A DNA stretch of 64,000 nucleotides from the NCBI GenBank assembly GCA_017937305.1, contig JAGBDV010000001.1, forward strand, positions 66,237 through 130,236, written 5' to 3'. Both the position numbers and the translations under genes were made by a program. Below are positions 21,656 to 21,781 of this stretch, piece by piece; positions within the stretch are counted from its first letter, which is position 1; each line of letters begins with the position of its first letter. The notes beneath the pieces were generated by a model. That model did no database searches and was not told the origin of the DNA. It worked only from the letters and a program-made list of their open reading frames with translations. The stretch comes from Bacilli bacterium. GTDB lineage: Bacteria > Bacillota_I > Bacilli_A > ML615J-28 > CAG-313.

Positions 21656-21781
21656 TTATTCCCAGAAGTCTAATTCCTTATCTCCAGTTTCAACTCCACC
21701 AAACGTACCAGAGGCAGTTAAAATATTTTCTGTGTCAAATTCAACAATTTCGATTGTTGGATTTTCATATTGTTTATTCAT
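21656..21781 (-). CDS. Unannotated 41-aa RiPP-precursor-like peptide MNKQYENPTIEIVEFDTENILTASGTFGGVETGDKELDFWE
   Basis: Manual translation; GGAGG RBS; YxxP RRE-type leader; paralog at 60680-60811. Confidence 0.8.
   Translation of the reverse strand: MNKQYENPTIEIVEFDTENILTASGTFGGVETGDKELDFWE

Follow-up and report, generated by a model that had tools for sequence, protein, structure and literature searches.

Between the gene of a secreted protein of 507 amino acids (aa) and the gene of a small lipoprotein, a stretch of 64,000 nucleotides (nt) from contig JAGBDV010000001.1 of a Bacilli bacterium (the whole stretch is here called the window) contains an open reading frame (ORF) of 41 codons, and the locus raises the questions of whether this ORF is a gene and, if so, what kind of peptide it encodes. 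The first-pass annotation had described it as a precursor-like peptide with two possible fates, one as a lasso peptide and one as a substrate cleaved in the manner of a signal peptide by an S26-type enzyme encoded nearby. Judged from the conservation of its sequence the 41-codon ORF is a real gene, and it probably encodes a precursor (LppA type) of the linear polyphosphorylated peptides (LPPs), a class of peptides that are made on ribosomes and then modified post-translationally (RiPPs), which would be served in trans by three enzymes encoded elsewhere in the window. The gene and its parts are the following.

21656..21781, minus strand: the gene of the 41-aa precursor peptide (LppA-like), which reads MNKQYENPTIEIVEFDTENILTASGTFGGVETGDKELDFWE
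21716..21781, minus strand: the leader, approximately residues 1–22 of the peptide, with Y5-x-x-P8-x-I10
approximately residues 23–41 of the same peptide: the core, ASGTFGGVETGDKELDFWE
21796..21791, minus strand: the ribosome-binding site AGGAGG, 9 nt before the peptide ATG and kept in the related loci L004 and L007

The AGGAGG overlaps the TAG stop codon of the 507-aa gene, which ends 13 nt before the peptide ATG, and only 4 nt separate the peptide TAA from the lipoprotein ATG; the ORF, the GGAGG and both gaps are all found in the sequence as first annotated. The AT-rich DNA of the window has a background of 81 ORFs of at least 30 aa in 16 kb, and since ORFs of 41-codon size are thus common, the case for a gene rests on comparison. 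In four clusters of orthologues the head, MNKQYENPTIE.VEF..E.ILTAS, and the tail, DFWE, are invariant and enclose a variable middle, and the orthologous contigs are syntenic (Maf, riboswitch, a protein of 5xx aa, peptide). The ribosome-binding site is kept at these loci, and in-frame indels in the variable middle leave the frame and the tail intact. Conservation in orthologous loci was one of the points on which the first-pass annotation could have failed, and ORF, leader, ribosome-binding site and synteny are all kept there. The same genome carries two paralogues of the peptide, one in the window and one on another contig, where it lies upstream of a protein related to the 802-aa protein of the line below, and genomes of the same genus have up to 15 copies (15 in G031).

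60680..60811, minus strand: a paralogous precursor, MNKNYETPSIEIIEYETEIETANSSTIFDYPWKDSNDDSGFFE, directly upstream of the gene of an 802-aa secreted protein

The profile search that had been proposed together with the ORF was made exhaustively against 1.8 billion representatives, and finds at least 161 representative clusters (161 at E ≤1e-3, all of 30–67 aa), mainly from gut Clostridia (Lachnospiraceae, Oscillospiraceae and relatives). Their consensus runs MKKxYExPxIEIvEFEtEDIiTaSG, and the tail behind it is variable and acidic or Gly-rich. Among 117 sequences of the family the leader has Y/F in all 117, P8 in 115, I/M/V/L at position 10 in 110 and E11 in 112, and at the other end of the head T22 is found in 108 and S24 in 115. 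The information content is high up to S24, moderate at G25 and less than 1 bit past G25, and this drop indicates a leader-plus-core design, so that the peptide is precursor-like as it had been called, with a head conserved through S24-G25 and variable residues beyond. The leader has too few substitutions for dN/dS to be informative, and a PDB profile search with the leader family gave chance matches to RIG-I only and did not retrieve the LppA leader chain. Scans of the 41-aa peptide against Pfam and NCBIfam gave nothing meaningful and no family model, and the peptide is unnamed in any source consulted, though public gene callers have called the ORF.

The class to which we assign the peptide was defined on the LPP clusters lppA-K-B-S-D-N of Paenibacillus alginolyticus DSM5050 (Popov et al., Nat Commun 2026, PMC13381572). 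In these, LppB is a RiPP recognition element (RRE) that binds a YxxP leader, LppK poly-phosphorylates Ser3 of the core and does not accept Thr, and LppS is a SipW-like, LppB-dependent peptidase whose cut falls behind Thr-1, with Phe at -3, in disregard of the -3/-1 rule, while an MsbA-like exporter (LppD) and an NTP transferase (LppN) complete the cluster (PMC13381572). The published leader is written Y-16...F-3 E-2 T-1 | A Q S(P), with the consensus YxxPxVLxHQxIxFETxxS, and in the crystal structure its Tyr and Pro are held by N33, V35, Y60, D70 and F74 of LppB (PMC13381572). The window has a corresponding trio of genes, in which the peptidase gene overlaps the end of the RRE gene.

16864..17139, plus strand: a PqqD-type RRE (LppB-like), presumed to bind YxxP leaders (Pfam PF05402, 9.5e-16)
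17132..17545, plus strand: an S26/SipW-like Ser-His peptidase (LppS-like) of 137 aa, the presumed leader peptidase
17556..18254, plus strand: an HprK-like P-loop protein (LppK-like) of 232 aa with the motif SGTGKST, the presumed Ser kinase

In BLASTP the window RRE aligns to LppB without gaps (E 4e-7), and the five leader-contact residues of LppB are identical in it (N38, V40, Y65, D75 and F79). The S26-like protein shows 30% identity to LppS (E 1e-9), its S22 and H60, which correspond to LppS S29 and H68, are invariant in 45 aligned homologues, and LppS D93 aligns with its E81 (E in 42 and D in 3 of the 45). NCBIfam matches of the kinase-like protein are weak (ScmC 2.2e-7, HprK-related kinase A 1.1e-3); it is homologous to the K genes found behind peptides of the family, with full-length hmmsearch hits at E 1e-52 to 1e-72, and within the genus five genomes (G000, G031, G033, G036 and G039) keep its gene intact next to those of RRE and peptidase, while in G037 it lies nearby. 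As the trio keeps both the catalytic Ser/His of LppS and the YxxP-contact residues of LppB, the peptide should be an LPP-type precursor served in trans.

A locus scan covered one genome per species and used 20 sequences of the peptide family that are close to its consensus. The 79 loci obtained come from Lachnospiraceae, Oscillospiraceae, Ruminococcus, Roseburia, Blautia, Coprococcus and others, and the 57 with at least 3 kb of downstream sequence were taken as informative. HprK-like, PqqD and S26-like genes follow directly behind the peptide in that order and on the same strand in 29 of these 57, and one or more of the three are found in another 6. Five of the clusters were listed in detail, and in these an ABC-type exporter of approximately 550–590 aa and a protein of approximately 390–410 aa come after the trio, and Pfam identifies those of locus L056 as ABC_membrane plus ABC_tran and as NTP_transf_5 (2.5e-37) respectively. 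The gene content and order of the relatives is thus lppA-K-B-S-D-N, indicating that the family constitutes the precursors of a clostridial branch of LPP-type clusters, and this branch of the LPP family, to which the peptide of the window probably belongs, is divergent and mainly clostridial. In 49 genomes of the taxonomic family, ten of which were also searched with a broader peptide model, peptide and trio occur together in 8, the peptide only in 1, the trio only in 1 and neither in 39 (Fisher p 1.8e-7, uncorrected for phylogeny), and the corresponding table within the genus is 7/1/0/3 (p 0.024, likewise uncorrected). The LPP paper treats Bacilli and lists a few Lachnospiraceae and Ruminococcus peptidases, as minor network clusters, in a supplementary table; its main text treats neither surface proteins nor the precursors of those peptidases (PMC13381572), and a literature text search found no further paper.

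Several observations weigh against this assignment. The precursor gene is located 4.1 kb from the trio and on the opposite strand, there is no exporter or nucleotidyltransferase beside the trio, and no NTP_transf_5 gene is found in this assembly, which is 72% complete. By plain sequence LppB is not closer to the window RRE than lasso B1 proteins are, the PDB matches of this RRE being TbiB1 (6.8e-5), PbaB1 (0.006) and LppB (0.03). One genome of the same genus (88% complete) has peptides without the trio, and one genome of the family has the trio with no peptide detected. The F-[ED]-T element is 3 residues closer to YxxP than in LPP and is followed by an extra EDIIT-x-S, and because of this shift and the additional T-x-S the LPP cut site is not transferable with certainty. 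The missing genes have been looked for elsewhere: an NTP_transf_5 gene is located at another position in 3 of 4 same-genus genomes, once in a neighbourhood syntenic to the peptide operon, and a genome search for an LppD-like exporter matched many generic ABC exporters and was uninformative.

The syntenic case is locus L126 (G039:C33), where an NTP_transf_5 (LppN-like) gene at 6501–7667 lies between FtsH and Maf; the window has none at that spot. Just upstream of the trio and of an MgtE gene, the window contains yabP and yabQ (Pfam; 14359–15053) and two tRNA genes (15124–15289).

Some loci of the family depart from the common pattern. Two variant peptides, MKKEFETPTIEIINFDENINLGPNDEWYDSNVDMGGWI, that are without the T-x-S pair are encoded at 2962–3078 and 16770–16886 of locus L029, in the same-genus genome with 15 family copies (G031), where they flank the RRE-S26-kinase trio at approximately 5–8 kb. 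A subfamily at loci L089, L100, L101, L102, L110 and L111 has the same leader and Cys-rich cores, and follows a protein of approximately 450 aa, a candidate radical S-adenosylmethionine maturase, that is present besides kinase, RRE and peptidase; at L102 five precursors stand in tandem. Family peptides are also found on contigs binned to Bacteroidota, in metagenome-assembled genomes of a Prevotella sp. (L051) and of a member of the Bacteroidaceae (L108, which has kinase, RRE and peptidase as well), and these are either binning errors or a real spread beyond Bacillota.

The peptide gene is the second of three in a unit with its own control elements, and the 802-aa protein downstream of the paralogous precursor shares a domain with the first protein of this unit.

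23409..23505, minus strand: a purine riboswitch aptamer of the guanine type, which heads the operon (Rfam RF00167; score 53.7 bits, gathering threshold 37)
23357..23378, minus strand: the terminator hairpin of the riboswitch expression platform, between the aptamer and the start of the 507-aa gene
21795..23318, minus strand: the 507-aa secreted protein, encoded first in the operon; it has a signal peptide, and no anchor can be recognised in it
21798..22256, minus strand: the C-terminal module of the 507-aa protein, an immunoglobulin/fibronectin type III (Ig/FN3)-like beta-sandwich with a two-helix hairpin (from AlphaFold2 and jackhmmer)
21469..21651, minus strand: the 60-aa lipoprotein, last gene of the operon, with lipobox LVSC, an acidic disordered linker and the tail SGSTGWLPWV
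21441..21464, minus strand: a strong intrinsic terminator that ends the operon
58261..60669, minus strand: the 802-aa secreted protein, whose N-terminal domain is the beta module of the 507-aa C-terminus

No terminator is found between the 507-aa, peptide and lipoprotein genes, and the positions of the terminators and the aptamer indicate one unit consisting of riboswitch, secreted protein, peptide, lipoprotein and terminator. The riboswitch is conserved in the orthologous loci (L004 8233–8331 and L007 8269–8367) and absent from the five Lachnospiraceae clusters checked. A guanine-type riboswitch on an operon for a secreted protein, a peptide and a lipoprotein is an unusual regulon member for this class.

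We propose a processing pathway whose parts are recognised by homology and whose chemistry we infer. The peptide would be translated from a tricistronic, guanine-riboswitch-controlled mRNA together with the 507-aa protein and the lipoprotein, and its Y5-x-x-P8-x-I10 leader would be bound by the PqqD-type RRE (16864–17139). The RRE should present the peptide to the HprK-like kinase (17556–18254), by which the near-invariant Ser24 may be phosphorylated, possibly several times, and also to the S26-type Ser/His peptidase (17132–17545), by which the leader would be removed, most likely by a cut at T22|A23 and possibly by one after S24. The product would be an acidic peptide of approximately 19 aa, (p)ASGTFGGVETGDKELDFWE, whose place of action is probably the cell surface, in company with the secreted protein and the lipoprotein tether of its operon, and the trio is expected to serve in trans at least three precursors, which lie scattered in this genome.

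The conserved T22-A23-S24 is the likely site of both cleavage and phosphorylation, and the T22-x-S24 pair is near-invariant, 17 residues after the Tyr. Aligned directly to the FET motif of LPP, the peptide might instead be cut after T17; F15-D16-T17 lies 12 residues after the Tyr against 15 in LPP, position 17 is weakly conserved (T in 41, V in 18, S in 16 and A in 15 of 117), and this cut is ranked low because a poorly conserved position, with Val in 18 of 117, would have to serve as Thr-1. A cut at T22|A23 with S24 as phospho-acceptor is on balance somewhat likely, and is favoured by the constant presence of the kinase and by the fact that LppK rejected Thr while Ser is conserved at position 24 only. 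One of the two readings in the first-pass annotation had instead placed a signal-peptidase-like cut after T-A-S, which it found to suit the 17132–17545 protein. The enzyme seems well chosen, being an LppS homologue (30%, E 1e-9, Ser/His invariant) encoded beside an RRE and a kinase, with homologues of the trio directly behind the peptides at 29 of 57 loci; the cut after T-A-S is the less likely of the two. Such a classical -3/-1 cut by the S26 enzyme would release GTFGGVETGDKELDFWE, and S24 would then be conserved for cleavage. Small, near-invariant residues at 22 and 24, a variable position 23 and a position 25 that is mostly Gly make up a pattern typical of signal peptidase I sites, but LppS, the homologue that has been characterised, does not follow the -3/-1 rule and cleaves behind Thr-1 (Phe at -3), and a cut after S24 would leave the always-present kinase without a conserved acceptor, as the remaining core is Ser-free and LppK refuses Thr. 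We therefore regard cleavage after S24 as possible but unlikely.

A further alternative is that the peptide is unmodified or merely trimmed, and serves as a small acidic partner of the adjacent secreted protein (an escort in secretion or folding, or a plug) in which the kinase is not involved. It would agree with the tight coupling to the 507-aa gene, whose stop codon overlaps the ribosome-binding site, and with the pairing to secreted proteins, which is pervasive in the family even at loci without the enzymes within 10 kb; that the trio has no D or N genes beside it and that the core is Ser-free apart from S24 also fit. On the other hand, S24 and T22 come directly behind P8 and E11 in conservation, five genomes of the genus keep the kinase gene next to RRE and peptidase, a sixth has it nearby, 29 clostridial clusters keep it as well, and peptides and trio co-occur, so that an unphosphorylated acidic partner is improbable. 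Much less probable again is that the ORF arose by chance or that it encodes a signal peptide of the Sec type cut by the housekeeping signal peptidase, since for all the short ORFs that are frequent in this AT-rich DNA the peptide is conserved family-wide with ribosome-binding site and frame kept across indels, and its head is acidic (7 Asp/Glu against 1 Lys), with no positive n-region and no hydrophobic h-region; both are refuted by the comparative data. The lasso precursor of the first-pass annotation, with Thr at -2 and an S1-E8 macrolactam, is hardly credible and is rejected: the leader motif YxxP, the Thr two residues before Ser24 and the best PDB match of the window RRE, the lasso protein TbiB1, are in its favour, but the acceptor Glu8 of SGTFGGVE is unconserved, with K, F, Q or G at core position 8 of close orthologues (SGTFGGSK, SGTFVGEF, SGTFGESQ and SFNGSLPG), the K-B-S-D-N gene sets inspected near family peptides have no cyclase-sized extra gene (Pfam on L056 only), neither the B2 peptidase PF13471 nor the Asn-synthase-type cyclase PF00733 is found in this assembly (72% complete), and PF00733 is absent from G031 (97% complete, same genus, 15 peptide copies) and from G036, with weak partial hits only in G033 and G039.

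Returning to the phosphorylated product proposed above, its possible role can be approached from the proteins encoded on either side of the precursors. Where clostridial loci have upstream sequence, a large secreted-protein gene (500–2588 aa) in most cases precedes the peptide gene at a distance of 12–90 nt. Its product, e.g. a BspA-type leucine-rich repeat protein, has a signal peptide, and among the C-termini of these upstream proteins that were listed none ends in a transmembrane-plus-basic anchor. Two types of C-terminus are seen. Type A is a beta module ending ..RAYLVYTDKNGNxHTVYG.., the domain that forms the C-terminus of the 507-aa protein and the N-terminus of the 802-aa protein (alignment, and jackhmmer at E 1.9e-19 to 1.3e-4). 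Type B is a helix, ..LKNLIKALYxYNQAAxxY.., and the last residues of the 507-aa protein are ..NKDLLTILYNAYK. An AlphaFold2 model of residues 355–507 of the 507-aa protein (pLDDT 74.7) shows the Ig/FN3-like sandwich and the two-helix hairpin, and Foldseek of this module gave generic FN3/Ig matches only (E approximately 1e-3, template modelling score approximately 0.4).

Behind the peptide, clostridial loci usually encode a small membrane-tethered protein, and at 17 loci this protein, either a lipoprotein or held by a signal anchor, has a disordered Pro/Thr/acidic linker that leads to a tail ..ELPF[V/I]P[A/F].. (L046–L048, L054, L056, L058, L060, L061, L064, L066, L067, L070, L073, L077, L082, L085 and L107). 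At L045, L083 and L087 the ELPF[V/I]P motif is found at the mature N-terminus of a transmembrane-anchored protein. The cores of several ELPF[V/I]P loci share the motif, as in GELPFVPAE, TPFVPAEP, NELPILPAN beside YELPIIPVQ, and ..PEI beside ..IELPEI. The type of core tracks the upstream C-terminus, LP-type cores being found in 0 of 8 cases of type A and 16 of 19 of type B (Fisher p 7e-5, uncorrected for phylogeny). In locus L007 a second YxxP-leader peptide (10272–10406) with the tail SGSTGWLPWI, its own terminator and ribosome-binding site replaces the lipoprotein, and the DNA homology of its gene to the window lipoprotein gene (21469–21651) is confined to the 3' end that codes for the tail. 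One tail module can thus be carried by a lipoprotein signal or by a RiPP leader, which speaks for an extracellular action of the mature peptides together with these partners. Five-residue words shared between a core and the other proteins of its own locus were found for 6 of 102 cores, against a mean of 3.9 and a maximum of 9 for shuffled loci, which is not significant because the ELPFVP motif is common to many loci, and the tail sharing therefore rests on the inspection of individual loci. That the shared tails of peptide and tether reflect a shared surface function is a hypothesis drawn from these sequences.

More tentatively, the C-terminal tail of the mature peptide and the identical or similar tail of the tether might have one binding partner, the terminal module (Ig/FN3-like or helical) of the co-encoded, anchor-less giant exoprotein, although we consider such docking rather doubtful. 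The lipid- or membrane-anchored tail would then hold the exoprotein on the cell, and the phosphorylated peptide might compete with the tether and so release or regulate the exoprotein, or else its phospho-Ser end might be fixed via the nucleotidyltransferase to a wall glycopolymer and form a second anchor; the whole module of the window would be switched by guanine. If docking is true, it would constitute a new non-covalent surface-display system and a first function for LPPs.

LPPs were first described in 2026, in Bacilli, and a large unnamed family (at least 161 clusters, mainly from gut Lachnospiraceae and Oscillospiraceae) can now be placed with them. LPP-type enzymes can apparently serve scattered precursors in trans, and the recurrent order of an anchor-less secreted giant, a precursor and a small membrane-tethered protein gives a testable idea of what the peptides do. 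The coupling to surface proteins and tethers, and the control by a guanine riboswitch, go beyond the published LPP work.

Three known systems resemble the one in the window. SipW with its substrates (TasA/YqxM) in Bacillus subtilis has a peptidase of the same archaeal/ER-type S26 family, and T-A-S|G would satisfy the -3/-1 rule; in contrast to SipW substrates the window peptide is without signal-peptide architecture, and the window peptidase is small, paired with an RRE and presumably cytoplasmic, acting on an RRE-presented leader. Phosphorylated lasso peptides of the paeninodin type, from Bacillota, have in common with it a stand-alone RRE, a Ser kinase resembling HprK, NTP_transf_5 and a [Y/W]xxP leader, whereas here there is no macrolactam cyclase, no B2 cysteine protease and no conserved ring acceptor, the leader peptidase is a serine enzyme of the S26 type, and the leader has Tyr and not Trp. 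The published LPP systems differ in their leader (YxxPxVLxHQxIxFETxxS against the family YExPxIEIVEFEtEDIiTaSG) and in their cores, which are rich in Gly, Asn, Pro and Lys whereas those of the family are short, acidic and aromatic. They are also found in a capsule locus, while here the precursors are scattered, the enzymes are reduced to B-S-K in another order with no adjacent exporter or nucleotidyltransferase, and the operon is one for a secreted protein and a lipoprotein under a purine riboswitch. With LPPs the window peptide shares variable cores, the lack of a cyclase and relatives in A-K-B-S-D-N clusters, partner enzymes that comprise a stand-alone RRE of the PqqD type, a Ser/His peptidase resembling SipW and a kinase resembling HprK, an F-[E/D]-T element and behind it a conserved Thr...Ser pair that may correspond to the border of leader and core in LPPs, and a leader motif of the Tyr type, YxxPx[V/I], which in the window peptide is Y5-E-N-P8-T-I10.

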